Assembly (NCBI GenBank): GCA_044376025.1
Contig: JBILLP010000001.1
Span: forward strand, 1 to 31,204
Source of the DNA: Bradymonadia bacterium
Lineage (GTDB): Bacteria > Myxococcota_A > Bradymonadia > REDH01
DNA length: 31,204 bases
Reading direction: 5' to 3'
The position numbers and the translations under genes were made by a program. The notes under the pieces were generated by a model. It searched no databases. It saw nothing but the letters and a program-made list of their open reading frames with translations, and was not told the DNA's origin. The stretch's first letter is position 1; the number at the start of each line of letters is the position of its first letter. Below, in pieces: positions 9,066 through 21,600 of the stretch.

Positions 9066-9182
9066 CCCGAACCTCCCGACACACTGTCCCACATGCACCT
9101 ACCTGTTTGCCCATCGTTGCCAGACGACGGGGCAGCGTGCGAACTTTGCGCGACGATGACGTTGAGACCTGGAGGGAGCCCG

Positions 9183-9251
9183 ATGTCGACGACGAATCCC
9201 CTGCGCGACCGCGCCTCCGCGCCGCCGCCGGACGCGTGTCGCCCATGTTGA
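9183..9251 (+). CDS. Possible 22-aa leader ORF (MSTTNPLRDRASAPPPDACRPC) coupled to sctR
   Basis: GGAGG at 9171-9175, ATG 9183; stop TGA 9249-9251 lies just inside the sctR start (ATGTTGA). Confidence 0.3.
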   Translation: MSTTNPLRDRASAPPPDACRPC

Positions 9252-9865
9252 CGGGGCTCGACCCGGCCTGGCTGGCAACGGTGGTCGTCGCGACCGCACT
9301 GCCCCTGCTGCTGGCGATCGGGACCTCGTTCGCGAAGTCGCAGATCGTGCTCGCATCGCTTCGACACGCGCTGGGCGCCGGCAGCGTGCCCTCAGACCTT
9401 GTGATCACCGCCGTCGCAGCGGCCTGGACGGCTGCCGTGATGACACCGCTCCTCGAGCAGCTTCCCTCGGCGACGACCTGGTTGAGCGGCGGGGTCGCCG
9501 ATGGCTGGCAGGCACCGTGGCGGGCCTTCTTGCTCGCGAACGCCGGGCAACCTGAGCTCGAGGCTGCACTCCGCATCTCGGGACAGTCCGCGGCGCACGC
9601 CGACGTCGGGGTTGCGACAGCCTTGATGGCCTTCTCGCTGACCGAGCTCCGGGAGGCCTTCGTGCTCTCGTTCGCGGTGGTTGTCCCCTTCTTCGTGATC
9701 GACCTCGCGCTCGGTGCAACGCTGACCGTGGCCGGACTGCAGTCGGTGCCCCCGTCGTCGGTGGCGGTCCCGCTGAAGCTGCTGCTGTTCGGGTCGGCCG
9801 GCGGCTGGCTGCTGGTCAGCCAGAACCTGCTGACGGGCTACGTCTTCCCGGCGGCGGGACCATGA
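9245..9865 (+). CDS. sctR: Divergent SctR/FliP-family type III export gate protein
   Basis: TSFAKSQIVLASLRHALG, VMTP, PWRAFL, AFSLTELREAF, PFFVIDL, PLKLLLF..GGW..V.QNL..GY; no FliP-type signal peptide; 206 aa. Confidence 0.85.
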   Translation: MLTGLDPAWLATVVVATALPLLLAIGTSFAKSQIVLASLRHALGAGSVPSDLVITAVAAAWTAAVMTPLLEQLPSATTWLSGGVADGWQAPWRAFLLANAGQPELEAALRISGQSAAHADVGVATALMAFSLTELREAFVLSFAVVVPFFVIDLALGATLTVAGLQSVPPSSVAVPLKLLLFGSAGGWLLVSQNLLTGYVFPAAGP

Positions 9866-10119
9866 TGGAGCCCTACGAGATCCTCGACGCCTCCGCGCGG
9901 GTGGTCGTCGCCTGCTGCGCCGCGCCGGTCGCGGCCGCACTCGTCGCCGGCGCGCTGGCGGGCTGGCTGCAATCGGCGCTCCACATCTCGGAGCCGGTGC
10001 TGTCGAGCGCCGCTCGGCTGATCGCGGGCGCGATGGCGCTCTGGGCGGCGCGTCCGCTCTACATCGGGCCGCTCGTCGACCTTGCTACGGCGGTCTGGTC
10101 CGGGGGTGGCGGCCCATGA
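9862..10119 (+). CDS. sctS: Divergent SctS/FliQ-family export gate protein
   Basis: 85 aa, two hydrophobic halves, WLQSALHISEPVLSSAAR aligns with LQAATQINEMTLSFIPK; position between sctR- and sctT-like genes; ATGA overlap. Confidence 0.75.
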   Translation: MMEPYEILDASARVVVACCAAPVAAALVAGALAGWLQSALHISEPVLSSAARLIAGAMALWAARPLYIGPLVDLATAVWSGGGGP

Positions 10120-10763
10120 GCGTCGCGGCCGATGACCTGCTGGCCCGGGGGCTGCTGTTGCACCTTCTCGCGGTTGGCCCCGCGGTGCACGTCGGTGTCG
10201 GCATGGGGCTTGGCGCGGTGCCGTGGCAGGCAAGGCTTGGCATGGCGCTGCTCGTGGCGGTCGCCCGGCTCGAGCGCCACGGGACGCCCGGCTCGACCCC
10301 GCTGGCGGCATGTGCGGCGGGTCTGCTCGCGGCGGCGATGGTCGCGGTGCTGCTGTCGACCGGTCGGTGGGCGGCGCAGCTGGCCGGGTATGGCTCCGAG
10401 GCGCAGCCAACCGCCGCCTGGCAGCTCGCGATCGCGGCCGGAGCGGCCGCTTCGGGCTGGCTCCCCGCCCTCGTCGAGTCGCTCACCATCCCGGTCAACG
10501 TGGCCTACCCCGGTCCCGCGCAACACCTCGAGGCGGCCGCGCACCTCGCCCTCGTGATCGCCGCCCCGTCGATCCTTGTCAGGCTGCTCGGGGCAATCGT
10601 GGGGGCGATCTCCGACCGCTGGTTCGCGCGCACCGCCCCAGGCGCCCTGCTGCAGGCCGTCGCTGCGATCGTGGCTGCCTGGCTGCTGCTCGCCTCCGCG
10701 CTCGACGAAGGCGGCTCCGTGGCGCTTCGCCCGACGCCGCTGCCAGCCGAGTCCTCGCCATGA
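10116..10763 (+). CDS. sctT: Highly divergent, shortened SctT/FliR-family export gate protein
   Basis: Multi-TM; VPWQARLGMALLV near the N-terminus and LALVIAAPSIL..LLG...RTAPG near the C-terminus; 215 aa; synteny with R, S and U. Confidence 0.6.
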   Translation: MSVAADDLLARGLLLHLLAVGPAVHVGVGMGLGAVPWQARLGMALLVAVARLERHGTPGSTPLAACAAGLLAAAMVAVLLSTGRWAAQLAGYGSEAQPTAAWQLAIAAGAAASGWLPALVESLTIPVNVAYPGPAQHLEAAAHLALVIAAPSILVRLLGAIVGAISDRWFARTAPGALLQAVAAIVAAWLLLASALDEGGSVALRPTPLPAESSP

Positions 10764-11407
10764 GCAGGCGCGTGTACCCACCCACGGCCGCGCGCAGGGC
10801 GCGCTTCGGCGCTGCAGGCGCGGCGCCATCGTCTCGCTCGCTGCAGCACCTCGCCGCGCTGCTGGCGGGCGGTGCCTGCCTCGTGCACCGATCCGGGGAG
10901 TTCCGTCGGGGGTGCGAAGGGCTGTGGACGTCGCCATCGGGGTCGCTCGAACCCGCCCTTGCGCTGCTGGCCTCGGGGGTCGCACCCGTGCTGCTCTGCA
11001 TGGTGCTCGGAGCCGCGGTCGTGGCGGCCCTCGAGTCCCGCGGGCTCTTCAGCCCGGCGAGGTCGCTCGCCGACACCGGGGAGTCAGCACTGACGCCGGC
11101 AGATGGTCTCCTGCCGGCCCTGGCGCTGGCAGGGGCCTCGGCCCTTGCGCTTGCCGCTGGATTCGCGGCCTTCGATGCGCGCCGCGACGGGGGGGCGGCG
11201 CGGCTGCTCGGGACGATTGCGGCCGGGTCGCTGCCGGTCGTGGGTTTGCTGCTGCTCGGCGCGCTCTGGCGCGGCTGGCGGGTGCATGCGGCCCACGATC
11301 GACGCATGCGCATGACACGCGAGGAGTGCCTCGATGAGTACCGGGAGGCCTCCGTGGACCCCGAGGTTCGTCGTCGCGTCGAGGCGGGCTTCGCCGAGCG
11401 CGGCTAG
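10760..11407 (+). CDS. sctU: SctU/FlhB-like protein, membrane domain only (no NPTH autocleavage or C-terminal domain)
   Basis: ATG 10760 overlaps the sctT stop; N-terminus YPPTAARRARFGAAGAAPSSRSL resembles EEPT.KKL..AR..G.V.KS.EL; C-terminus RRMRMTREECLDEYREASVDPEVRRR resembles KMTKQEVKDE.K..EGDP.IK.R; stops at 215 aa. Confidence 0.75.
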   Translation: MSRRVYPPTAARRARFGAAGAAPSSRSLQHLAALLAGGACLVHRSGEFRRGCEGLWTSPSGSLEPALALLASGVAPVLLCMVLGAAVVAALESRGLFSPARSLADTGESALTPADGLLPALALAGASALALAAGFAAFDARRDGGAARLLGTIAAGSLPVVGLLLLGALWRGWRVHAAHDRRMRMTREECLDEYREASVDPEVRRRVEAGFAERG

Positions 11408-12981
11408 TCGACCTCTGCGATGTTCCTCAGCTTGGACTGGGTGCGCTCCTGGGCGCGCCGGATCTCGTCCTCTGTGAGCCCGCCGTGGTCGGTGATCACG
11501 ATGCTCTGGGACTGGCGCGTCTCGATGTCGAGCGCGTGCACGTGCACGATGCCGTCGGAGTCGACGTCGAAGGTGACCTCGACGCGCGGCTGTCCGGCGC
11601 CGCGGGGCGGGATGTCGGCGAGGTTGAAGGTGCCGAGAAGCCGGTTGTCCGAGGCGATCGGGCTCTCGCCCTGCAGGACTGCGATCGAGACGATGTCCTG
11701 GTTCTCCTCGGTCGTGGTGAAGACCTTCTTGCGCTGCGTCGGGATCGCGGAGTTGCGCGGGATGATGGTGGACATCTTGTTGCCGATGACCCGGATCCCG
11801 AGCGACAGCGGCATGACGTCGAGCAGGATGAGCTCGCGCACCTCGCCGCCAAGGATTCCGCTCTGGATCGCCGCGCCGATCGCGACGACCTCGTCGGGAT
11901 TGACGCCCCGGTGGGGCCGTCGCGCGAAGATCTGCTCGACGCGCTCCTGGACGAGCGGCATGCGCGTCATGCCACCGACCAGGATGACCTCGTCAATCTG
12001 GTCGGTCGAGATGCCGGCATCGGCGAGGGCGGTGCGGCAGGGGGCCTCGAGCCTGTCGACGAGCCCGGCGGTCAGTTCGTTGAGCTCAGACCGGCTCATC
12101 AGGTAGCTGAGGTGCTTGGGGCCCGAGTCATCGACGGCGAGGAAAGGCAGGTTGATGTTGGTCTCGCTCAGCGTCGATAGCTCGCACTTGGCGGCCTCTG
12201 ACGCCTCACGGAGGCGCTGCAGCGCCATCTTGTCCTCGGAGACGTCGAGCCCGGTGCGCTCCTCGAAGTGTTCCAGCAGGCGGCCCAGCACGGCACGGTC
12301 GAAGTCATCGCCACCGAGCGAGTTGTCACCGCAGGTTGCGATGACCTCGAAGACGCCGGCACGCAGTCGCAGGATCGAGATGTCGAAGGTGCCGCCACCG
12401 AGGTCGAAGACCGCGACGACGGAGTTCTCGCGCTTGCCGACCCCGTAGGCCAGCGCAGCGGCAGTGGGCTCGTTCAGGATGCGCTTGACGTCGAGGCCGG
12501 CGATCCGGCCAGCGTCCTTGGTCGCCTGCCGCTGTGCGTCGTCGAAGTAGGCCGGCACGGTGATGACCGCCTCGGTGATCTCCTCTCCGAAGTAGTCTTC
12601 GGCCGTCGCCTTCATCTTCTGCAGGATGAAGGCGGAGATCTCCTGCGGCGAGTAGCTCTGGCCGCTGATGCTGACGACGCAGTCGCCGTTGGCGGCCTCC
12701 GCGAGCTTGAAGGGCAGAGTCCGGCGCTGGTCCGAGATCTCAGGTGAGCGGTACTTTCGCCCCATCAGCCGCTTGACGCCGTAAATGGTGCGCTCGGGGT
12801 TGATGATCGCCTGTCGCTTGGCCTGCTGCCCGACCAGCCGCTCACGAGCGTCCGTGAGCGCGACCACAGAGGGCGTCGTGCGCGCACCTTCGGCGTTCGG
12901 CAACACAATCGTCTCCCCGCCCTCCATGACGGCGACGCAGGAGTTGGTGGTGCCGAGATCGATGCCGATGATTCTTCCCAT
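11404..12981 (-). CDS. DnaK/Hsp70-family paralogue lacking most of the helical lid
   Basis: GIDLGTTNS, TVPAYF, NEPTAAALAYG, DLGGGTFDIS, LGGDDFD, LVGGMTRMP, NPDEVVAIGAA, linker ELILLDV, full SBD-beta; ends at 525 aa just after GGLTEDEIRR. Confidence 0.93.
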   Translation of the reverse strand: MGRIIGIDLGTTNSCVAVMEGGETIVLPNAEGARTTPSVVALTDARERLVGQQAKRQAIINPERTIYGVKRLMGRKYRSPEISDQRRTLPFKLAEAANGDCVVSISGQSYSPQEISAFILQKMKATAEDYFGEEITEAVITVPAYFDDAQRQATKDAGRIAGLDVKRILNEPTAAALAYGVGKRENSVVAVFDLGGGTFDISILRLRAGVFEVIATCGDNSLGGDDFDRAVLGRLLEHFEERTGLDVSEDKMALQRLREASEAAKCELSTLSETNINLPFLAVDDSGPKHLSYLMSRSELNELTAGLVDRLEAPCRTALADAGISTDQIDEVILVGGMTRMPLVQERVEQIFARRPHRGVNPDEVVAIGAAIQSGILGGEVRELILLDVMPLSLGIRVIGNKMSTIIPRNSAIPTQRKKVFTTTEENQDIVSIAVLQGESPIASDNRLLGTFNLADIPPRGAGQPRVEVTFDVDSDGIVHVHALDIETRQSQSIVITDHGGLTEDEIRRAQERTQSKLRNIAEVD

Positions 12982-13038
12982 AGTGCGATGGCCTGTTGTT
13001 CAACGAAGGATTGGATTGCGGTTGGATGGGAGCGGGAT

Positions 13039-16000
13039 TCAGCTGGACTTTCGCCCGAGGAGCAGCCGGTCGAGGAAGCTCTCGGGCTTCTTCGACTTGT
13101 CGGCCTTGCCCTTGAGGTACCTGAACCACCGGTTCGCGTCCTGGTTCGAGGGGTCGAAGTCGGTCGCCTGCTTGTAGTAGCTCATTGCGTCGGCGTCGTT
13201 CTCCTCCGCGCGGGCGAGGTGTCCGAGCAGCGTGGCGACGGCGGCGCGGTTGTAGGCCTCCTTCACATCGTCGAGGTTCTTCTCGATCGACTTTCGCGCC
13301 GAACGGCTGTCGAGCTTGCGCCGCGTGACGAGGAGGTAGGTCTCGTGGGCGTCGATGACGGCCCCGGAGGCGCCCTTCTGCTTCGAGAGGACGAGCAGGT
13401 CCCACGCCTTTTCGACGGAGCCCTGCTCGATGGCACGTTGGGCGTTCCTGAAGATCTGGTCGGGGCTCAGCCGCCCCACCGCGCTCCGTGAGATGGTGGT
13501 GGTCGCCGACGGCGGCATCGACGGCGGCGGCGAGGCCGGTGGTGAGCCAGCGCCCTGCGCAAGCGGCTGGGATGCGGTGACCGAGGCGGGGCCTGCACCC
13601 TGCCGGCGGAGGCGCTCGAGCGCCTCAGAGACACTCGCCCCTCGAGGGGTCGCGCCCGGGGTGCCCGTGCTCCCGACGGCAGGGAGCACCTGCGTCGGCG
13701 TGGCATTGCGCGGCGTGCCCGGGTTCGTCGGCGGAGGCACATTCGGGCGCATGCCGGTCGCGGGTGCCGGAGGCCGCGATGCCGGCGCAGCCGGGCGCGC
13801 CGCATCGGCGAGTCGGGCCTTCTCGAGGCCGGTGAGCACGCCCTGTACCTCGCGGAGCTTGAGGAATGCCTTGTCGGCGGTCGCCTTCGCGCCACCGTCT
13901 GCAAGTCGGGCGTAGCGATCCGGGTGATGCTCCCGCACCAGTTCATAGTATCGCCGCTCGACGCCCTCGACACCGCAGCCCGGGCTCACCCCGAAGACCT
14001 TGTAGGGGTCGGGGTTCGAGACCCTGGTGACCAGCTCCTCGAGGCTTGCAAGGGCTGCGCGACGAGCGGCCTCGGTGTCGTCCTGAGTCGGGCCACGACG
14101 CGGGTCCTGCGATACCGGCGACGGCTGCGGGATCGGGTCGGAGGCACGGCGCGGGTCGCTCGGCACGCCTGGGTTGCTCGGGGCGCGCGTCTCGAATCCG
14201 GCGCTGCCGGGAGGATCGCTCCGAAGGCGGGGGTCGTTCGCCAATCGCTGCCCCATCGGCGGCAGCGTGACACTCCGGCGCCCGGTACTCTGGACAACGA
14301 CCTGCGCGCGGAACTTGACCCGGACGGTGCGCGCCTCGGGCTCGGGCAAGAAGACGATCCCCCCGACCAGCCACAAGAAGTGGATGAACTGCATCGTCTC
14401 GTTGATCGCAGCCCCCGCGCGACCGATGATCACCTCGAGCGGCGTCTGGCCATCAAGCGCGGCGAGCACGCTGCCGAGCGCGGGCACGTCCTTCGCCAGC
14501 GGCCGAAGGTTCTCGGCGTGTGTCGTCACGACCGGGTAGGCCCTGAAGTGACGGCCCAGCGCGCTCGCGAGGTCATTGGTCGGCATGTGGCGCTGGATGC
14601 CGCGCAGGATCAGCGCGTACACGTCGGCGAGTGGGAAGAAGCGCGCCCGCGAGACCTCGCACTCATAGACATCGTAGCCGCCGGTGGTCCACGTGAAGCA
14701 GGACAGCAACCGTGTCTCGTCGGCTCCGGAGGGCGCAGCGTCGAGCTTGCCGAGCTGACCGTCGAGCATCCACACGCGCCGCTCGAGTCCTCCCTGCTTG
14801 AAGATCACCTCGCCACTGCGCTGGCTCATGGCCACGGCGAGAAGCACGCGGCCGAGCACCTGGGCGCCCATCTCGCCCCGCTCGAGCGAGGCAAGCTCGA
14901 GCACGACCTCAGGAGCCGCACCCGCTGCGGTCTCGACACCGCCCGGTGGCGTGTGGGGGCGCGCGGCACGCTCCGAGCCCGGCACCGGGACGGGCACTGG
15001 CTCCGTCACCAGGGCTGAACGGGGCATCGGTCCGTCAGACAGGCCTGGCACCGCCTCGACGCGCGGCACGAAGGGAGTCCCGATCGCACGCGTCGTCAAC
15101 TGCTCAGCCCCGGGGTCGACCCCGGCCGCGATCGGACTGGACCCGGAGTTCGAGACGGGTCGGCCAGGTGCCGAGGAGGCAGGATCGGGGCTGGACGTCA
15201 GCTCCCTGGCGTCTCCGGTGTGATGCTCAGGTCGTGCCGGGGGTGCCTCGACGCCGGAGTCCTCAGGTCCTTCGAACCCATCGGGCGAGGTCAGCCCGCC
15301 GGTCTGGTCGTCGGGATCATCAGCGTGAGCCGACAGGGCGTGTTGGCCGAAGATGCGCTCGATCTCATCGTGCAGGCCGGAGTCGTTCCCCTCGAACTCG
15401 GCCTGCTCCTCGAGCACGGCCAGGTCGACTTCGTCGATGAGGGCGGAGTATCGGGGCGCGGTTGAGGTCCCTGAGAAGGACTCCGCGCTCTCGTGGAAGG
15501 GGGTTACCTCGTTCGGATCCGGCTGCGCGGCCGCCTCGGCAACCGGCGGCGGCAGCGGCTCGAAGCGAGGCTTCTCTCGGGACTCAAGTGCCGGGTCGAA
15601 GCTCGCGGGCACCACGGTGATCTGCTGGCTCTCCCGCTTCGAGTCCGAGGTCACCCGCCCTGGCTGCGTATCGCGGACCCCGCTCCAGGCCGTATCGCCG
15701 GTTGCCCGGGTGATCGCCCGGGCCAGTCGCCGTTCGTCGATGGGTGCGGCGACGAAGTGCTCGAAGTCCGTCTCGATTGCGATCTGGTGGCGGTCTTCCT
15801 CGTCGCGATCCTCGAAGACGATCACGATCGGCAGCCTGAGCGCCCGCAGTGCCCACTCCGCCGCCCTCAGCCCCTCGGGTCCCCCTTCGCGGATGGCTGC
15901 GTAGTGAAGCACGCCCACGTCGGGTCGCTCCGAGGCCACCTGATCGATGAACTCGTCCCACGAGTGGACCCATCGGGTCAGCGTGTCCTCGAGCCGAGTG

Positions 16001-16083
16001 ATCGCGGCCATCAGCGGCACGCGTTCGGACTCTCCACCGACGAGGCAAAGCAGCTTCAAGTTGGGAGCTCCTTCGGGCTTCAC
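13039..16083 (-). CDS. Multidomain J protein: pseudo-receiver, acidic/Pro linker, DUF4388-like, J domain, TPR
   Basis: GTG 16083, four nt after the upstream stop; receiver-like ERPDVGVLHY...FVAAPID; DUF4388-like LGRVLL....RSGEVIF....RRVWMLDGQL..CFTWTTG; J domain DPYKVFGV...YYELVREHHPDR; C-terminal TPR-like helices. Confidence 0.8.
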   Translation of the reverse strand: MKPEGAPNLKLLCLVGGESERVPLMAAITRLEDTLTRWVHSWDEFIDQVASERPDVGVLHYAAIREGGPEGLRAAEWALRALRLPIVIVFEDRDEEDRHQIAIETDFEHFVAAPIDERRLARAITRATGDTAWSGVRDTQPGRVTSDSKRESQQITVVPASFDPALESREKPRFEPLPPPVAEAAAQPDPNEVTPFHESAESFSGTSTAPRYSALIDEVDLAVLEEQAEFEGNDSGLHDEIERIFGQHALSAHADDPDDQTGGLTSPDGFEGPEDSGVEAPPARPEHHTGDARELTSSPDPASSAPGRPVSNSGSSPIAAGVDPGAEQLTTRAIGTPFVPRVEAVPGLSDGPMPRSALVTEPVPVPVPGSERAARPHTPPGGVETAAGAAPEVVLELASLERGEMGAQVLGRVLLAVAMSQRSGEVIFKQGGLERRVWMLDGQLGKLDAAPSGADETRLLSCFTWTTGGYDVYECEVSRARFFPLADVYALILRGIQRHMPTNDLASALGRHFRAYPVVTTHAENLRPLAKDVPALGSVLAALDGQTPLEVIIGRAGAAINETMQFIHFLWLVGGIVFLPEPEARTVRVKFRAQVVVQSTGRRSVTLPPMGQRLANDPRLRSDPPGSAGFETRAPSNPGVPSDPRRASDPIPQPSPVSQDPRRGPTQDDTEAARRAALASLEELVTRVSNPDPYKVFGVSPGCGVEGVERRYYELVREHHPDRYARLADGGAKATADKAFLKLREVQGVLTGLEKARLADAARPAAPASRPPAPATGMRPNVPPPTNPGTPRNATPTQVLPAVGSTGTPGATPRGASVSEALERLRRQGAGPASVTASQPLAQGAGSPPASPPPSMPPSATTTISRSAVGRLSPDQIFRNAQRAIEQGSVEKAWDLLVLSKQKGASGAVIDAHETYLLVTRRKLDSRSARKSIEKNLDDVKEAYNRAAVATLLGHLARAEENDADAMSYYKQATDFDPSNQDANRWFRYLKGKADKSKKPESFLDRLLLGRKSS

Positions 16084-16087
16084 GGCG

Positions 16088-19000
16088 TCAGCGACGTCCC
16101 CCGAGATTCTGGATCTCGTTCTCCATCTCGCGACGCTCGTCCGCGGGTAGTTCAGCACGATCGACGAACTCTTTCAATGCCGATGCCGCTTCTGCCCTCC
16201 GACCGAGGTCGCGGAGCGTGTAGGCGAGCTTCTGGAGCACCTCCGGGCGCGTTGCCTCGAGGCCTCCCTCGCGCGCCTTCTGGAAGTAGGGCAGCGCCTC
16301 TGCATTCCGTGGCGGGTTGTACCCCAGGTAGGACAAGCCGACGAAGTAGTTCGTCTCCGGCTGCTTCGGATCGATCGACAGGCTGTGGGACATGCGCACG
16401 ATCGCCTCGTCGAAGTCGCGCCTGTCAAACGCGACCTTGCCCAGGGTCCATGCCGCCTGCGCGTGGTTGGGCTGAAGGGTCAGCACCACCTTGAGGTCGC
16501 GTTGCGCGGCCGCGCCCTGCCCGCGGAGGGCCATGAGGCGCCCCCGGCGATAGAAGACCTCGGGGTTCTCGAGCGACCAGCCGATGTCCTTCTCGATCGT
16601 CGCCGTGTACTCCTGCATCGACTGCGTGAGCTGCTCCGCGCGCTCGAGCGCGTACCCAAGCCAGTAATGGAACTCGCCCGACGGGTCGCGCTGCGACACG
16701 CGGGTGAGGGCCGAGATCGCCTCATTGAAGTGACCGAGCTCGAGGTCGCACCGACCAACGTAGTAGAGCGCCTTGTCCATCGAAGGCTCGGTGGCGTACG
16801 CCGCCGCGAAGTTCTCGCGGGCGGGCGCGAACGCTCGGGTCTCAAAGTGGGCCCGGCCCATCATGAACCGGTAGTCCGCATTCTTGGGGTCTGACTCGAG
16901 GAGCTTCAGCAGCCCCTCGATGGCCTGGTCGACCTTGCCGATGCCGATCAGTGCACGGGCGTGCATGTACTTGACCTTGGGGCTGTCGACGCCGCTCGCC
17001 ATCATCTCCTCGATCTCGTCGAGACCGCGCTGGAACTGGTTCGTGTTCATGAAGAAGTCGGCGAGGTTCAACCGTGCGTCCGGGTACGAGCGGTCGATCG
17101 CCAGGGACCGCCTGAACGAGGTCACCGCGCGGTTCGTCTCGCCGATCAGCAGGAAGACCTCCCCGATCTCATTGGCCACCGACGCGGTTCGCGTCTCGAC
17201 CGCCAGCGCGTCGTCGAGGCGCTTGCGGGCTCCGCTCGGGTCATTGGCGCGGTAGGAGAGCTGTGCGAGGCGGATGTAGGGGCGCAGGTAGTTGGGGTCT
17301 GTCTGCACCGCCTGGTCGTAGAGCTGCCGAGCCTCGGAGAACTCCGCGGCCTCCTCATGGACCCGGCCGAGCCAGTAGGCGAAGCGGCCATCGCGCGAGA
17401 ACTTCGTGATCGCGGGTTCGAGGAGCTTGCGGAGGTCCTCCCACGCCGCGAGCCCGAACTTGGCCTTGATCAGGCCCAGCGTCGATTCGGGGTCGTTCTT
17501 GGCCAGCCCGGCGTTCTGCTGAAAGTACTCGATCGCCCGCTGGAACTGCCCGGCGCGGTAGAACTGCTCGCCGAGCTCGTTCAGGGCGATCTTGTTCTGC
17601 GGATCGGCCTGGAGCGAGGACAGCAGGTTCTCGATCGCGAGCTCAGGCTGGATCCGGGCGATCGCGATGTCTGCCGCGACCAGGTAGGTCTGGCTGCGCT
17701 CCGCCTGCGTCATGACGTCGGCGAGGTCCTCGATGGCGCGGGTGATGCGCGTCTCCGCCTCGATCAACTGCCCCTCCTTGAGCAGTGTCTCCGCGAGGCC
17801 AACCAGGGAGCGGACGTGCTGCGGGTTGAGCTCGAGCGCCTTGGTGAACTCCTGCTCCGCCTCGGGGAGCCGGCGCTGGTCGAGCGCAATCCAGCCAAGC
17901 CAGAAGCGGGGTGAGACAAACTTGGGGTCGAGCTGCGTCGCGCGGTTGAACGCGGCGGCCACCGAGTCAGGGAGCGTCCGCTGCAGCTCAGCCTCAGGCT
18001 GCACGGGAGCCGCGGCTGCGGGCGCAGCAGCCTTCGCCTCGCCGCTACCCTCCGCGCTCGGCGCCTTCGCTGCGGCGGCACCGCTGCCTTCGCCAGCCTT
18101 GCCGCTCCCGTCCTTCGCAGCGCCGGAGCCCTCTGCCGCTGCGCCACTGCCCTCCTTGGGGGCCGCGCGCGACGGCGCAACCGGCTCCGAGTAGTCGATA
18201 CCGCGATAGGCTTGGAGCCCGGCGATTCCCTCGAACAGGGCCGCAAAGCTCCGGAGCGCAGGATCATCGACCGCCTTGAGTGCCTCCGCGGCGCCCGCAT
18301 CGCCGGATGCCGCGAGCGCGGCGCCCGCCGCAAGCTTCGAGATCGCCTCCTCGCGGCTCCTGATGCCCGAGTTCCACCGCGTGATCTCCGAGTAGAGCCC
18401 CTTCTGGCCCGGCTGCTCCGCAAGCAGCATCGTGGCCGCGATCACGGTCTTGGCGCGATCGAGGTCGGTCCCTCCGCCACGGAGCAGACGGCGACCGTTG
18501 TCCACGAAGGTGGAGAGCGTCTTCGACGAGCCCGTCTGCAGCTCGGAGATCTCACCGAGCTTGACCATCGAGGCGCGCTCCAGCTCCGCCCTGCGGCGAG
18601 CCTCCTCGTCGCGAACACGCTGCTCCTCCTCTGCCTTGCGCGTCTGCCAGACATGGTAGGCGCCGAAGGCTCCCGCACCGACGAACACGGCCACCATCCC
18701 CGCGACGAGCGCCCGGGTCGGCAGCTTGCGGCGCGCCTTCGTGGCGGATCCGGCGGCAGGCGTGGCATCCGCCGGCGGGAAGAAGTCTGCGAAGTCAGAC
18801 GGCGGCGGCTGGCCGAGGTCTGGGAGCTCCTCGTTGCGGGTTCCCCACCCGCCCGCAGGCCCCGGTGTTGCGAACGGGTCCTGCGGCGCCTCTTCGGCTG
18901 CCGCGGTCGAGATGCCCGTCGTGCGGGGCGGGACCGAGCGACCACCGAATCCGTGGATCGCCCCGCTCCCGTCGCCCGCGGAGAGTCCGATCGAGGGCCG

Positions 19001-20299
19001 CGACTGCCCGACCCAGAGGTTCTCTGCCTCGCCGAGCTGTTCGAGCATCTGCGTGCCGACCGCCCGCGATGAAGCCGGGAGGTTGTCCTCGGGAGAGCCC
19101 TCGCCGATGCCTCCGCTCATCGGCTCGCCGAAGTCACCGAAGTTGGCCTCGAGGGTGCGGGGGCTGCCGACCGGCGCCCCACGGCTCGCAGGAAGGTTCT
19201 CCTCGTCGTAGCCTGACCCGGTGACGTTGAAGGCCGCCGTTGCCGGGACGCCGCTCGCGCCCTGCGAGGCCGGGGCGCGCCGATCGTAGGGATCGACGCC
19301 GCCTCCGGTCATGCTGGCCGGCGCGTAGGAGTCAGGGAGCCCGGCGGGCAGTTCGGTGCCACCCAGGGATCGAGGCAGCTCGGTTCCGCCCATGGATCGC
19401 GGCAGCTCAGGACGCTGCGCCGAGGTCGGCAGCTCGCTGCGGCCACCGGCCGGGCGCGGCAGCTCGGCTCGACCACCGGCGGGGCGCGGTAGATCGGTCA
19501 CGCCACCGAGGCCGGGGATCGACTCCGGATTGAAGGCGACCGGGTAGTTCGTGAAGCCCTTGGGCAGCGGGAGCTGGCCCGTCATGCCGGTGCCAGGCTG
19601 CATGCCCTCCGGGGAGACGCGGCGCAGACCTGACACAGCCCCGAGCGCATCGGCGTTCGTCTGGATCGAGGCCACGGAGGCCTCGCTCATCGCCGGCGCG
19701 GCGGGGTCATCGGGGTTGCTGCTCCACGACCCCGTCGCGAGGCGAGAAGCCCGCTCCGAGACCGAGCCGAGGCCGGTCGCGCCGATGGGCGACAGCGTCC
19801 CGCCGGCCCTTGGCAGCTCGCCGAACTGGGCCGCCCTGCGGGCCTGCTCCGCGATGTCGCGCACCACGCTGAAGTCCGCCGTGTTGAGCGCCTGCTCCTC
19901 GGGAGTTCCCGGCGCCACGGGAGCCATCGGGGCCTGCGCCCCCACGACCGTGCCGCCACGCCCCGTCGCGTCGCGGAACGCCGCACCGAACTCGGGGATC
20001 GCCATGATCGGGATCCAGAACTTCCGGTCCTTCGAGACCGTCTCGTCGCCGCCGAGCGCGCCGGCAAGGATCGCCCCGACCACACCCTCACTCGGCGTCG
20101 GGCCTTCGATCGCACCGCTCGCCCGCTTGACAAAGTAGGCATCGGCAGCGGTCGGGACGACCGCGGGCTTACCCATGATCGTACGGCTGCCGACCGGTGC
20201 ACCGAGCGAGGTCGGACCCTCCGTGAACGCCGATGCCGGCTGCGGCTCCTCTTCGAAGCGCGGAGGCCGAGGGTTCGAACCACCTTCTCTGGTCGCCAT
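16088..20299 (-). CDS. Large bitopic membrane protein: GYF_2-like domain, long disordered linker, TM helix, extensive TPR array
   Basis: YFVKRASGAIEGP...GALGGDETVS...WIPIMAIPEF (GYF_2-like); TM LVAGMVAVFVGAGAFGAYHVW; many TPR-type helices (A...LG......G....A...F..AL...P). Start at ATG 20299 is chosen, not proven. Confidence 0.8.
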   Translation of the reverse strand: MATREGGSNPRPPRFEEEPQPASAFTEGPTSLGAPVGSRTIMGKPAVVPTAADAYFVKRASGAIEGPTPSEGVVGAILAGALGGDETVSKDRKFWIPIMAIPEFGAAFRDATGRGGTVVGAQAPMAPVAPGTPEEQALNTADFSVVRDIAEQARRAAQFGELPRAGGTLSPIGATGLGSVSERASRLATGSWSSNPDDPAAPAMSEASVASIQTNADALGAVSGLRRVSPEGMQPGTGMTGQLPLPKGFTNYPVAFNPESIPGLGGVTDLPRPAGGRAELPRPAGGRSELPTSAQRPELPRSMGGTELPRSLGGTELPAGLPDSYAPASMTGGGVDPYDRRAPASQGASGVPATAAFNVTGSGYDEENLPASRGAPVGSPRTLEANFGDFGEPMSGGIGEGSPEDNLPASSRAVGTQMLEQLGEAENLWVGQSRPSIGLSAGDGSGAIHGFGGRSVPPRTTGISTAAAEEAPQDPFATPGPAGGWGTRNEELPDLGQPPPSDFADFFPPADATPAAGSATKARRKLPTRALVAGMVAVFVGAGAFGAYHVWQTRKAEEEQRVRDEEARRRAELERASMVKLGEISELQTGSSKTLSTFVDNGRRLLRGGGTDLDRAKTVIAATMLLAEQPGQKGLYSEITRWNSGIRSREEAISKLAAGAALAASGDAGAAEALKAVDDPALRSFAALFEGIAGLQAYRGIDYSEPVAPSRAAPKEGSGAAAEGSGAAKDGSGKAGEGSGAAAAKAPSAEGSGEAKAAAPAAAAPVQPEAELQRTLPDSVAAAFNRATQLDPKFVSPRFWLGWIALDQRRLPEAEQEFTKALELNPQHVRSLVGLAETLLKEGQLIEAETRITRAIEDLADVMTQAERSQTYLVAADIAIARIQPELAIENLLSSLQADPQNKIALNELGEQFYRAGQFQRAIEYFQQNAGLAKNDPESTLGLIKAKFGLAAWEDLRKLLEPAITKFSRDGRFAYWLGRVHEEAAEFSEARQLYDQAVQTDPNYLRPYIRLAQLSYRANDPSGARKRLDDALAVETRTASVANEIGEVFLLIGETNRAVTSFRRSLAIDRSYPDARLNLADFFMNTNQFQRGLDEIEEMMASGVDSPKVKYMHARALIGIGKVDQAIEGLLKLLESDPKNADYRFMMGRAHFETRAFAPARENFAAAYATEPSMDKALYYVGRCDLELGHFNEAISALTRVSQRDPSGEFHYWLGYALERAEQLTQSMQEYTATIEKDIGWSLENPEVFYRRGRLMALRGQGAAAQRDLKVVLTLQPNHAQAAWTLGKVAFDRRDFDEAIVRMSHSLSIDPKQPETNYFVGLSYLGYNPPRNAEALPYFQKAREGGLEATRPEVLQKLAYTLRDLGRRAEAASALKEFVDRAELPADERREMENEIQNLGGRR
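18041..18154 (-). repeat. Five [E/D]GSG units in an Ala-rich extracytoplasmic insert
   Basis: EGSGAAAEGSGAAKDGSGKAGEGSGAAAAKAPSAEGSG. Confidence 0.8.
19347..19495 (-). repeat. Six tandem [D/E]LP repeats of 9-10 aa (27/30-bp period)
   Basis: DLPRPAGGRA-ELPRPAGGRS-ELPTSAQRP-ELPRSMGGT-ELPRSLGGT-ELP; ggcag(c/t)tc at 19347, 19374, 19401, 19428, 19458 and ggtagatc at 19488. Confidence 0.85.
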
Positions 20300-20451
20300 C
20301 GTTGGACTCTCGTAACGGTCTTTCGTCTGCCGGACCGAGCCATGCTCGATAGGTTGGACCGGGGCATCGCCCCCGGCCCCCTGACGTCCAAAACGCCCGA
20401 CCCGGCACCCTATGGTGTAGCCTCCTGCGGGGTCACTTTTCAACGATCTGC

Positions 20452-21600
20452 ATGTCCGCCCCCGAAATTGCCTCTCCAAGCGACCCGCAGCCCGCTCCCC
20501 GGGCGCGTCCAGACCCCGTCGAGGGTGATCCTCCGGTGTCGCGGCGCGAGCTGCTGCTTGCGGCGGTCGGCGTGCCCGCGCTGCTTGCGATCCTCGCCGC
20601 GACGGGAAGCATGGTCCCGCTGCTCGGCTCGAACCTGCTGCTCATCGTGGCGAGTGCGTTCGTCATCCTGTCTGACCGGCTCCTGCCCGCAGACGCGCCA
20701 CGCCTGGCGTCGAGCGACCATCGCCGCGAGGGCCTCACCCGGGGCCTGGCGACCGGCGTGGGCTGGAGCCTGATCGTGCTCGTGCTCTTCGTGCCTGGCT
20801 ACCATGTGTGGTCGACCGTCCTGAACGACCGGACCCTGGCTCCCGGCGCCGGCGCGCTCGCCCGGGTCGATGGCGAGATCGAGCGCACCTCGCGGCATCG
20901 CCCTGCCGATGCGCCGCCCGACACCGCGTGGATCGGCGCCGACGGCCGAGACCTGACGCTCTACTGGCACCCCACGCGGCAGCAGGTGCTGATCGAGGCC
21001 GCCACCGACGGCCGGTTCGCGGCGGTCGACGCCGTACCCCCGCCGACCGAGCGGACGCCGGGCACGCTGCGGCTCAACGCCTCGGGAGGCAGACCGATCG
21101 CCTGGCGCATCACGCCGCGCGACGCGACCTGGGTCGACGTGCGGGTCACCTACGCCGGCCGTGAGGCCCGGCTGCCCGGGATCCGGGTCGGCGACCGGGC
21201 TCCGCTTGCCTCCGAACAGCGCGGCACGGCGGTCCGGCTCCAGCTCGACCGGAGCTGGATCTGGATGTCGATCGCCGTGCAGCTGCTGCTGGTCGCGCTC
21301 CCCGAGGAGCTGTTCTTTCGAGGGTACCTGCAGCGGCGCTTCGCGCGCGCCCTGGGCGAGTCGCCGGGCAGCGGAGGCTGGCTGCGCCTGACGCGGTCAA
21401 ACCTCGCGGCCTCTGCGGTCTTTGCGCTGTCGCACCTCGTCATCGGCTGGAACCCCATGCGGCTCGCCGTCTTCGTACCCTCGCTGCTGTTCGGGCGGCT
21501 CGCGGAGCGGACCGGCGGCATCGCGGGATCGGTGTTGTTGCACGCCGCCTGCAACCTCATGGTGCAGATCGCTGCCACCCAGTACCTGACGCTTCGATGA
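20452..21600 (+). CDS. CPBP-family glutamic intramembrane protease, myxosortase-like, with an inserted soluble domain
   Basis: ALPEELFFRGYLQ, FALSHL, RLAVFVPSLLFG.L.ERTGGI...VLLHAACN; about 150-aa hydrophilic insert between the N-terminal TMs and the catalytic core. Confidence 0.85.
   Translation: MSAPEIASPSDPQPAPRARPDPVEGDPPVSRRELLLAAVGVPALLAILAATGSMVPLLGSNLLLIVASAFVILSDRLLPADAPRLASSDHRREGLTRGLATGVGWSLIVLVLFVPGYHVWSTVLNDRTLAPGAGALARVDGEIERTSRHRPADAPPDTAWIGADGRDLTLYWHPTRQQVLIEAATDGRFAAVDAVPPPTERTPGTLRLNASGGRPIAWRITPRDATWVDVRVTYAGREARLPGIRVGDRAPLASEQRGTAVRLQLDRSWIWMSIAVQLLLVALPEELFFRGYLQRRFARALGESPGSGGWLRLTRSNLAASAVFALSHLVIGWNPMRLAVFVPSLLFGRLAERTGGIAGSVLLHAACNLMVQIAATQYLTLR

Follow-up and report, generated by a model that had tools for sequence, protein, structure and literature searches.

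An isolated sctRSTU operon without the SctU switch domain, the probable pore core of a scattered, needle-less type III export apparatus in a Bradymonadia bacterium

Introduction

Bradymonas sediminis carries dispersed "YscRSTUV" genes that are up-regulated during predation (PMC7460792), and the system of the Bradymonabacteria has been termed a type III secretion system lacking a needle, or T3SS* (PMC11509652). In Myxococcus xanthus, a T3SS* (mxan_2434-2464; PMC12075869, PMC10849154) comprises an export apparatus and an ATPase, with needle, translocon, and dedicated secretin absent. The methionine gasket and the plug of the export gate have been presented as universal features of type III secretion (PMC8239009). 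Here we describe an operon of four genes, sctR, sctS, sctT, and sctU, that encodes such a gate at positions 9245-11407 of a 31,204-nucleotide stretch of DNA, hereafter the window, from an uncultured Bradymonadia bacterium of the Myxococcota (GenBank assembly GCA_044376025.1, contig JBILLP010000001.1, positions 1 to 31,204 of the forward strand).

This operon is probably the pore core of a scattered, needle-less, injectisome-type export apparatus that uses SctV and SctL/SctN from other loci of the genome. For the class, such isolation of RSTU is ordinary; what is notable is the joint loss, under purifying selection, of the SctU switch domain, the methionine gasket of SctR, and the plug of SctT. 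The genome is metagenome-assembled, 3.63 Mb in 606 contigs and 86% complete, and the window forms its contig C380. It was compared with 40 genomes of relatives from six families (f1-f6). The genus of the window is designated g1, and the sister genus, represented by five species, g4.

Results

Gene content of the operon

The operon consists of the following open reading frames (ORFs):

9245-9865, + strand: sctR, 206 amino acids, the main pore subunit; Pfam FliP
9862-10119, + strand: sctS, 85 amino acids; Pfam Bac_export_3
10116-10763, + strand: putative sctT, 215 amino acids, highly diverged; named from its position and a weak collinear profile match
10760-11407, + strand: sctU, membrane domain only, 215 amino acids; partial match to Pfam Bac_export_2

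The initial annotation, made from the window alone, had claimed four intact, ATGA-coupled ORFs in the order R-S-T-U between unrelated flanks. Re-reading of the ORFs and Pfam searches agree with this, and a stop/start overlap of the form ATGA is present at all three junctions. The profile check that it had proposed succeeded for FliP, Bac_export_3, and Bac_export_2 and left the third ORF unmatched. At third codon positions, the GC content of the four ORFs is 0.85-0.91, in line with coding DNA from a genome of ~70% GC. An upstream TTG at 9107 is a possible alternative start for sctR; gene callers in other assemblies choose 9245.

SctR scores 116.2 bits against Pfam FliP (cut-off 26.9) and matches PDB FliP and SpaP at E 1e-23. 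It falls below the NCBIfam equivalog cut-offs, with about equal scores against the FliP and YscR models, and its gene is the sole FliP-family gene in the genome. SctS scores 30.8 bits against Bac_export_3 (cut-off 25).

Nothing in Pfam or NCBIfam matched the third ORF. A profile made from this protein and its counterparts in the sister genus aligned with the canonical SctT of the family over 180 collinear columns (hhalign E 2e-4, probability 48%); by itself this profile found nothing in the PDB, and a mixed SctT profile of the family matched PDB FliR/SpaR at E 1e-16. An AlphaFold2 model built from a 43-sequence alignment that included FliR homologues reached a predicted local distance difference test score (pLDDT) of 68, and a Foldseek search with it placed three FliR chains on top, at non-significant E values of 0.16-0.7. 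A word search of 5.8 billion proteins for relatives returned only the query itself. From its position between sctS and sctU and from this weak homology, we accept the ORF as a putative SctT. The extreme divergence that had been claimed for the operon is evident in this protein, which has no Pfam hit, and in the long branches of SctR.

Partner genes elsewhere in the genome

The operon had been interpreted as a stand-alone minimal gate, in part because no SctV, ATPase, ring, secretin, or flagellin gene was seen within 31 kb. That observation is correct, since genome-wide family searches placed no other T3SS or flagellar gene on the window's contig, but the interpretation does not hold for the genome as a whole. 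Contig C382 encodes a 623-amino acid SctV, the membrane half of which scores 284-292 bits against FHIPEP and the best PDB matches of which are SsaV and YscV. On contig C81, an SctL-like gene (weak FliH match) overlaps the gene for a 445-amino acid SctN with a T3SS_ATPase_C domain; this protein scores 322 bits on fliI_yscN, versus ~176-180 bits for the ATP-synthase subunits on contig C300. Exact copies of the RSTU, SctV, and SctL-SctN loci all occur in one metagenome sample, ERZ27272066. Equally diverged SctV, SctL, and SctN are thus encoded outside the window, and of g1 and g4 the SctJ lipoprotein was recognized in g4 only. This goes most of the way toward the refutation that the initial annotation had named, an equally diverged T3SS set elsewhere in the genome.

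The whole-genome check that recovered sctV and sctN recovered no sctJ/fliF and no flagellin. In the 86%-complete genome, family searches did not find Bac_export_1, a second FliP, YscJ_FliF, or FliMN_C, and Flagellin_N and Flg_bbr_C (rod/hook) had no match. A search with the SctI of a relative as query returned no needle or rod homologue from the same assembly. The sole secretin in the genome is of the PilQ type and adjoins aroB, and a secretin-linked reading of the T3SS was rejected. What the genome holds is therefore the combination that characterizes a needle-less T3SS*, an export apparatus and an ATPase with needle, translocon, and dedicated secretin absent; the FliF, rod/hook, flagellin, and FliM/N of a flagellar T3SS were not found.

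A coding ORF of 133 amino acids and no recognizable family ends 1 nucleotide before sctL (L131:170-571 in another assembly of the organism; C81:2-241 in the window's genome). It was considered as a candidate for SctJ and is not recognizable as such. All four assemblies that contain the locus break within or just upstream of this ORF, which suggests a repeat or a strain-variable region.

Scattering and co-occurrence among relatives

The nearest named matches of SctR come from Myxococcota metagenome-assembled genomes labelled Deltaproteobacteria, Myxococcales, or Polyangiales. Across the 40 relatives, SctR, SctV, and SctN occur together in almost every genome of families f1, f2, f4, f5, and f6, and all three are absent from the genomes of f3 (8/8). 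In the complete genome G020, RSTU, sctV, sctJ-L-N, and sctQ are spaced 0.4-1.9 Mb apart, indicating that scattering is the normal, ancestral layout in the class; the positions of these genes agree with the DN745 locus tags given for B. sediminis FA350 in PMC7460792. According to the initial annotation, SctV, SctN, and the ring proteins stay clustered in the needle-less remnants of Myxococcota predators. In this class they do not, the genes being dispersed even where the genome is complete.

Within the window's family, genera g2, g3, g5, g7, and g8 encode a full-length SctU (model positions 2-335, 212-363 bits) and a full-length SctV, together with an operon of a sigma factor, an SctI-like gene, SctJ, a 218-amino acid gene, SctL, and SctN. 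In the sister genus, this operon retains the sigma factor, SctJ, SctL, and SctN, and the SctI-like and 218-amino acid genes are gone. SctJ of the sister genus is a 232-amino acid lipoprotein with a C-terminal transmembrane helix (hhalign 98%, E 3e-13, 207 columns), which Pfam YscJ_FliF misses (L115:748-1446 in G009; L114:7226-7921 in G003). The gene upstream of sctL in this genus had been taken for a 156-amino acid remnant with a non-significant BLASTP match to SctJ; this was rejected, as the gene is that of the 232-amino acid SctJ.

In the SctR tree, the window's genus and the sister genus form one clade (support 100/99) on very long branches beside the canonical clade of the family, grouping with the family's non-flagellar genes and apart from the flagellar FliP clade. 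SctR identity between the two genera is only 46-49%. Their SctR, SctN, SctV, and SctJ all have much lower scores and long branches, and for SctN the branch lengths are 1.2-1.6, versus ~0.3-0.4 in the other genera. Such co-acceleration is expected of one co-evolving machine.

Several further features were noted among the relatives. A sigma-70-family factor heads the sctJ-L-N operon throughout the family (L116:4110-4841 in G007; L115:30-743 in G009) and is a candidate for a dedicated regulator of the scattered T3SS loci; no clear orthologue was found in the window's assembly. The large genomes of f2 carry a complete flagellar-type cluster (FliF, FliI, FliM/N, FliP, FlhB, FlhA; for example, G017:C229:48899-68055) and a separate T3SS set. 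One genome of the sister genus, G012, contains FliM/FliN, a 572-amino acid FliF, and a C-terminal fragment of FlhA on the small contigs C276, C631, and C487; given the size of these contigs and 5% contamination, they are probably binning contamination rather than signs of a flagellum in that genus. In genus g21 (G027/G033), SctR is present, Bac_export_2 and YscJ_FliF have no match, and SctV is split over two frames; this genus may be a second reduced lineage in the class.

Losses in SctU, SctR, and SctT

The C-terminal domain of SctU/FlhB is commonly regarded as universal in type III secretion. The window's SctU matches Bac_export_2 at 37.2 bits (cut-off 24.4) over model positions 173-232 of 335 only. 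It retains the N-terminal PPT..R motif and the conserved linker helix (...MTREECLDEYREASVDPEVRRR...) and stops just past this helix, where the full-length SctU of relatives continues into the NP(T/V)(H/R) domain. In a search of 1.84 billion representative proteins with a profile of the window's SctU and that of the sister genus, the protein aligned end-to-end with the N-terminal 240 residues of full-length FlhB/SctU. The missing domain was also sought elsewhere: a profile of 50 SctU/FlhB C-terminal domains, which recovered six of six canonical SctU proteins of the family, found none in the six-frame translation of the genome (best E 0.75), and family searches of the genome found no second FlhB. 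The alignment and the profile search both support the earlier statement that this SctU is a membrane domain only. By these comparisons, the autocleavage/switch domain has been lost in g1 and g4 alike.

The assembly motifs TSFxK, ELxEAF, PFxxIDL, and PxKLLLF are retained in the window's SctR. When aligned to GMMML/GMMMM of PDB FliP/SpaP, its GLQSV shows that the GMMM gasket has become GLQS. The methionine loop reads GLQS in the window's genus and GLDS in the sister genus; the other genera of the family have GMHM.

In the same two genera, SctT is ~40 amino acids shorter than in relatives. It lacks a G-R-G-S-F-G-x-x-D-P loop, and its plug-loop region is shortened; in alignments, the plug of FliR as defined in PMC8239009 (residues 106-122, SFATFVDPGSHL) corresponds to the missing loop.

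Selection and synteny

Pairwise dN/dS (the ratio of nonsynonymous to synonymous substitution rates) was estimated by NG86 and YN00 among the five species of the sister genus, at dS of 0.1-1.0. The values were 0.05-0.11 for SctR, 0.09-0.17 for SctS, 0.13-0.23 for SctT, and 0.2-0.3 for the SctU membrane domain. Thus, purifying selection acts on all four genes of the operon in the sister genus, the group in which it was measurable. The window's species has one or two single-nucleotide polymorphisms in the 2.2 kb, too few for a ratio of nonsynonymous to synonymous polymorphism (pN/pS). Reading frames and overlaps are intact in both genera, and the same architecture recurs in six assemblies. The view that the operon is not undergoing random decay is upheld by these results, including the proposed dN/dS check, which gave values well below 1 for all four genes.

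An identical 215-amino acid SctU, always followed by a gene for a lidless Hsp70, occurs in six independent assemblies; the short sctU is therefore no assembly artefact. Upstream of the operon lie sugar-nucleotide genes, an RdgC-like gene, and a lipoprotein gene, and downstream, convergent with sctU, are the Hsp70, a J-domain protein, and a TPR protein, none of them related to T3SS:

11404-20479, - strand: lidless Hsp70 (525 amino acids), J-domain protein (1039 amino acids), TPR protein (1463 amino acids)

The Hsp70 gene and sctU overlap by four bases, their stop codons sharing CTAG. The Hsp70 gene adjoins the RSTU operon in the window's genus and the sister genus and lies within ~4 kb of it in g7. 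The order RdgC-like gene, RSTU, Hsp70 is kept within the family, which argues for vertical descent of the operon.

Short SctU in other lineages

The SctU profile search returned six close clusters, four of 215-228 amino acids and two of 163-164 amino acids, the full-length FlhB/SctU proteins (340-380 amino acids), which aligned across the whole query, and many proteins of 234-265 amino acids that end a few residues past the linker. Two loci with such proteins, both on metagenome contigs, are:

L150, 5133-9752: FliH, ATPase, FliJ, FliM/N, FliO, P, Q, R, U (236 amino acids), FHIPEP
L152, 2813-5414: SctQ, R, S, T, U (250 amino acids), then two small ORFs

The SctR tree places L150 with flagellar FliP and does not resolve L152; from the placement of L150, the SctU C-terminal domain was lost more than once. 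Distant lineages with a short SctU number at least two to three, and the methionine loop is degenerate in each of them. Among 82 loci surveyed, all those with a short SctU had a degenerate loop (LES, MLS, LIS, or LTM; LQS in the window), and the ~48 loci with a full-length SctU almost all had MxM, the departures being MQT in Myxococcaceae, one LTQ, and one MFR. An apparent tie between short SctU and degenerate methionine loop is thus a lead from a small sample of lineages that may not be independent.

Discussion

We propose that R5S4T1 and the SctU membrane domain would nucleate an inner-membrane pore, to which the SctV ring and the SctL/SctN ATPase complex would feed substrates, and that proteins would cross the inner membrane into the envelope with no needle. 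With no needle or rod to build, there would be no early substrates and no class switch, and the SctU C-terminal domain could have become dispensable. The altered methionine loop and plug would imply changed gating, in a machine that appears to have been remodelled in the clade of the window's genus and its sister genus, where all components evolve fast. In Salmonella, deletion of the plug leaves export intact and the membrane leaky, and substitutions in the methionine loop affect both sealing and function (PMC8239009); a remodelled gate is therefore plausible but unusual.

Several points weigh against such an exporter. The C-terminal domains of FlhB/SctU are needed for export in model systems. 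Loss of the methionine gasket impairs function and membrane sealing in Salmonella (PMC8239009). The C-terminal ~290 residues of SctV are not recognizable by sequence, and a word-indexed search for relatives of this domain returned only the query itself. Neither Pfam nor a search with the SctQ of G020 detected SctQ in the 13 genomes of the family, the FliM/FliN pair of G012 excepted. The window's assembly yielded no SctJ or SctI, their usual site being cut by a contig end in every assembly. Markers of a Tad/Kil system are likewise missing from the 86%-complete assembly, with no RcpC and no second secretin, which leaves the export route without a passage across the outer membrane. The dN/dS values come from the sister genus and not from the window's species.

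Some of these points fit an unlikely alternative, in which the core is no longer a gated protein exporter but a differently gated or constitutive conduit, or a scaffold for envelope assembly, that still uses SctV and SctN. Switch domain, methionine gasket, and plug have all been lost together while selection persists, short SctU and degenerate methionine loop recur jointly in distant lineages, SctQ is not found in the family, and the C-terminal domain of SctV is unrecognizable. Retention of SctV and the ATPase complex and conservation of the SctR assembly residues argue instead for protein export, as does the plug deletion in Salmonella that spares it (PMC8239009), showing that loss of the seal need not abolish export; nor do the neighbouring genes suggest an alternative substrate. 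That the operon is a slowly decaying, non-functional relic of an ancestral myxobacterial T3SS is quite unlikely. Its extreme divergence, the loss of a domain and motifs held to be essential or universal (PMC8239009), and the stepwise loss of components (SctQ family-wide, SctI and the 218-amino acid gene in the sister genus) would suit a relic, whereas dN/dS well below 1 for four genes in five species, frames and ATGA coupling kept in two genera ~50% apart in SctR, and intact partner genes would not.

It is very improbable that SctRST and the SctU membrane domain act as a repurposed gate independent of other T3SS genes. The operon is physically isolated and translationally coupled, and SctR5S4T1 is known to self-assemble (PDB 6F2D-type structures), but the genome also encodes SctV, SctL, and SctN, which accompany SctR across relatives and share its accelerated divergence, and an isolated RSTU is the usual layout in relatives with a fuller T3SS. 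We give hardly any weight to a remnant of a flagellar export apparatus: although SctR scores FliP and YscR models about equally and some relatives in the class (f2) carry full flagellar clusters, SctV best matches SsaV and YscV, it is a short SctJ lipoprotein and an SctI-like gene, not FliF, that occur in relatives, the SctR tree puts the clade with the family's non-flagellar genes, and searches of the genome detected neither flagellin nor rod/hook proteins, FliF, or FliM/N.

Machines kept by selection without switch domain, gasket, and plug offer natural tests of what protein movement and a sealed membrane really require, and may reveal the minimum for a needle-less T3SS in predatory Myxococcota. 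As a tentative suggestion that could well prove wrong, selection-kept cores lacking the SctU switch and the methionine gasket (here also the SctT plug) may be distinct switch-less, differently gated exporters that arose independently in several uncultured lineages, of which the window's clade would be the most reduced and most scattered. For annotation, the case shows a seemingly "orphan" RSTU operon of this phylum to be part of a scattered system, and curated hidden Markov models miss its diverged partners (SctT in the window's genome, SctJ in the sister genus).

Compared with canonical SctRSTU/FliPQR-FlhB gates (PDB 6F2D, 6R69, 6PEM, 6S3L), the operon has the same gene order and the same SctR and SctS families, but it lacks the NPTH domain, has LQS in place of MMM and a shortened plug loop, and encodes an SctT that lies under every curated threshold. 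The loci L150, L152, and L111 resemble it in an SctU that stops a few residues after the linker and in a degenerate SctR methionine loop (MLS, LIS, and LTM); their genes stand in compact clusters together with those for SctV, SctQ, and the ATPase, and they fall into other clades of SctR, and their losses of the SctU C-terminal domain and that of the window look independent. The T3SS* of M. xanthus, which shares its complement of injectisome-type export apparatus and ATPase with the window's system, is encoded in a single large cluster that includes a full sorting platform, and it works with a Kil/Tad pilus, whereas the genes described here are scattered, and neither SctQ nor a Tad marker was found; the Myxococcaceae loci examined also have a full-length SctU, unlike the window. 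In B. sediminis and other Bradymonabacteria (PMC7460792, PMC11509652), RSTU is likewise isolated from sctV, sctJ-L-N, and sctQ. Their full-length SctU (354 bits, model positions 2-335), GMHM loop, Pfam-detectable SctJ, and SctQ are lost, changed, or not found in the window's genome. Set beside these systems, the one described here is a further reduced form of the known needle-less myxobacterial T3SS.

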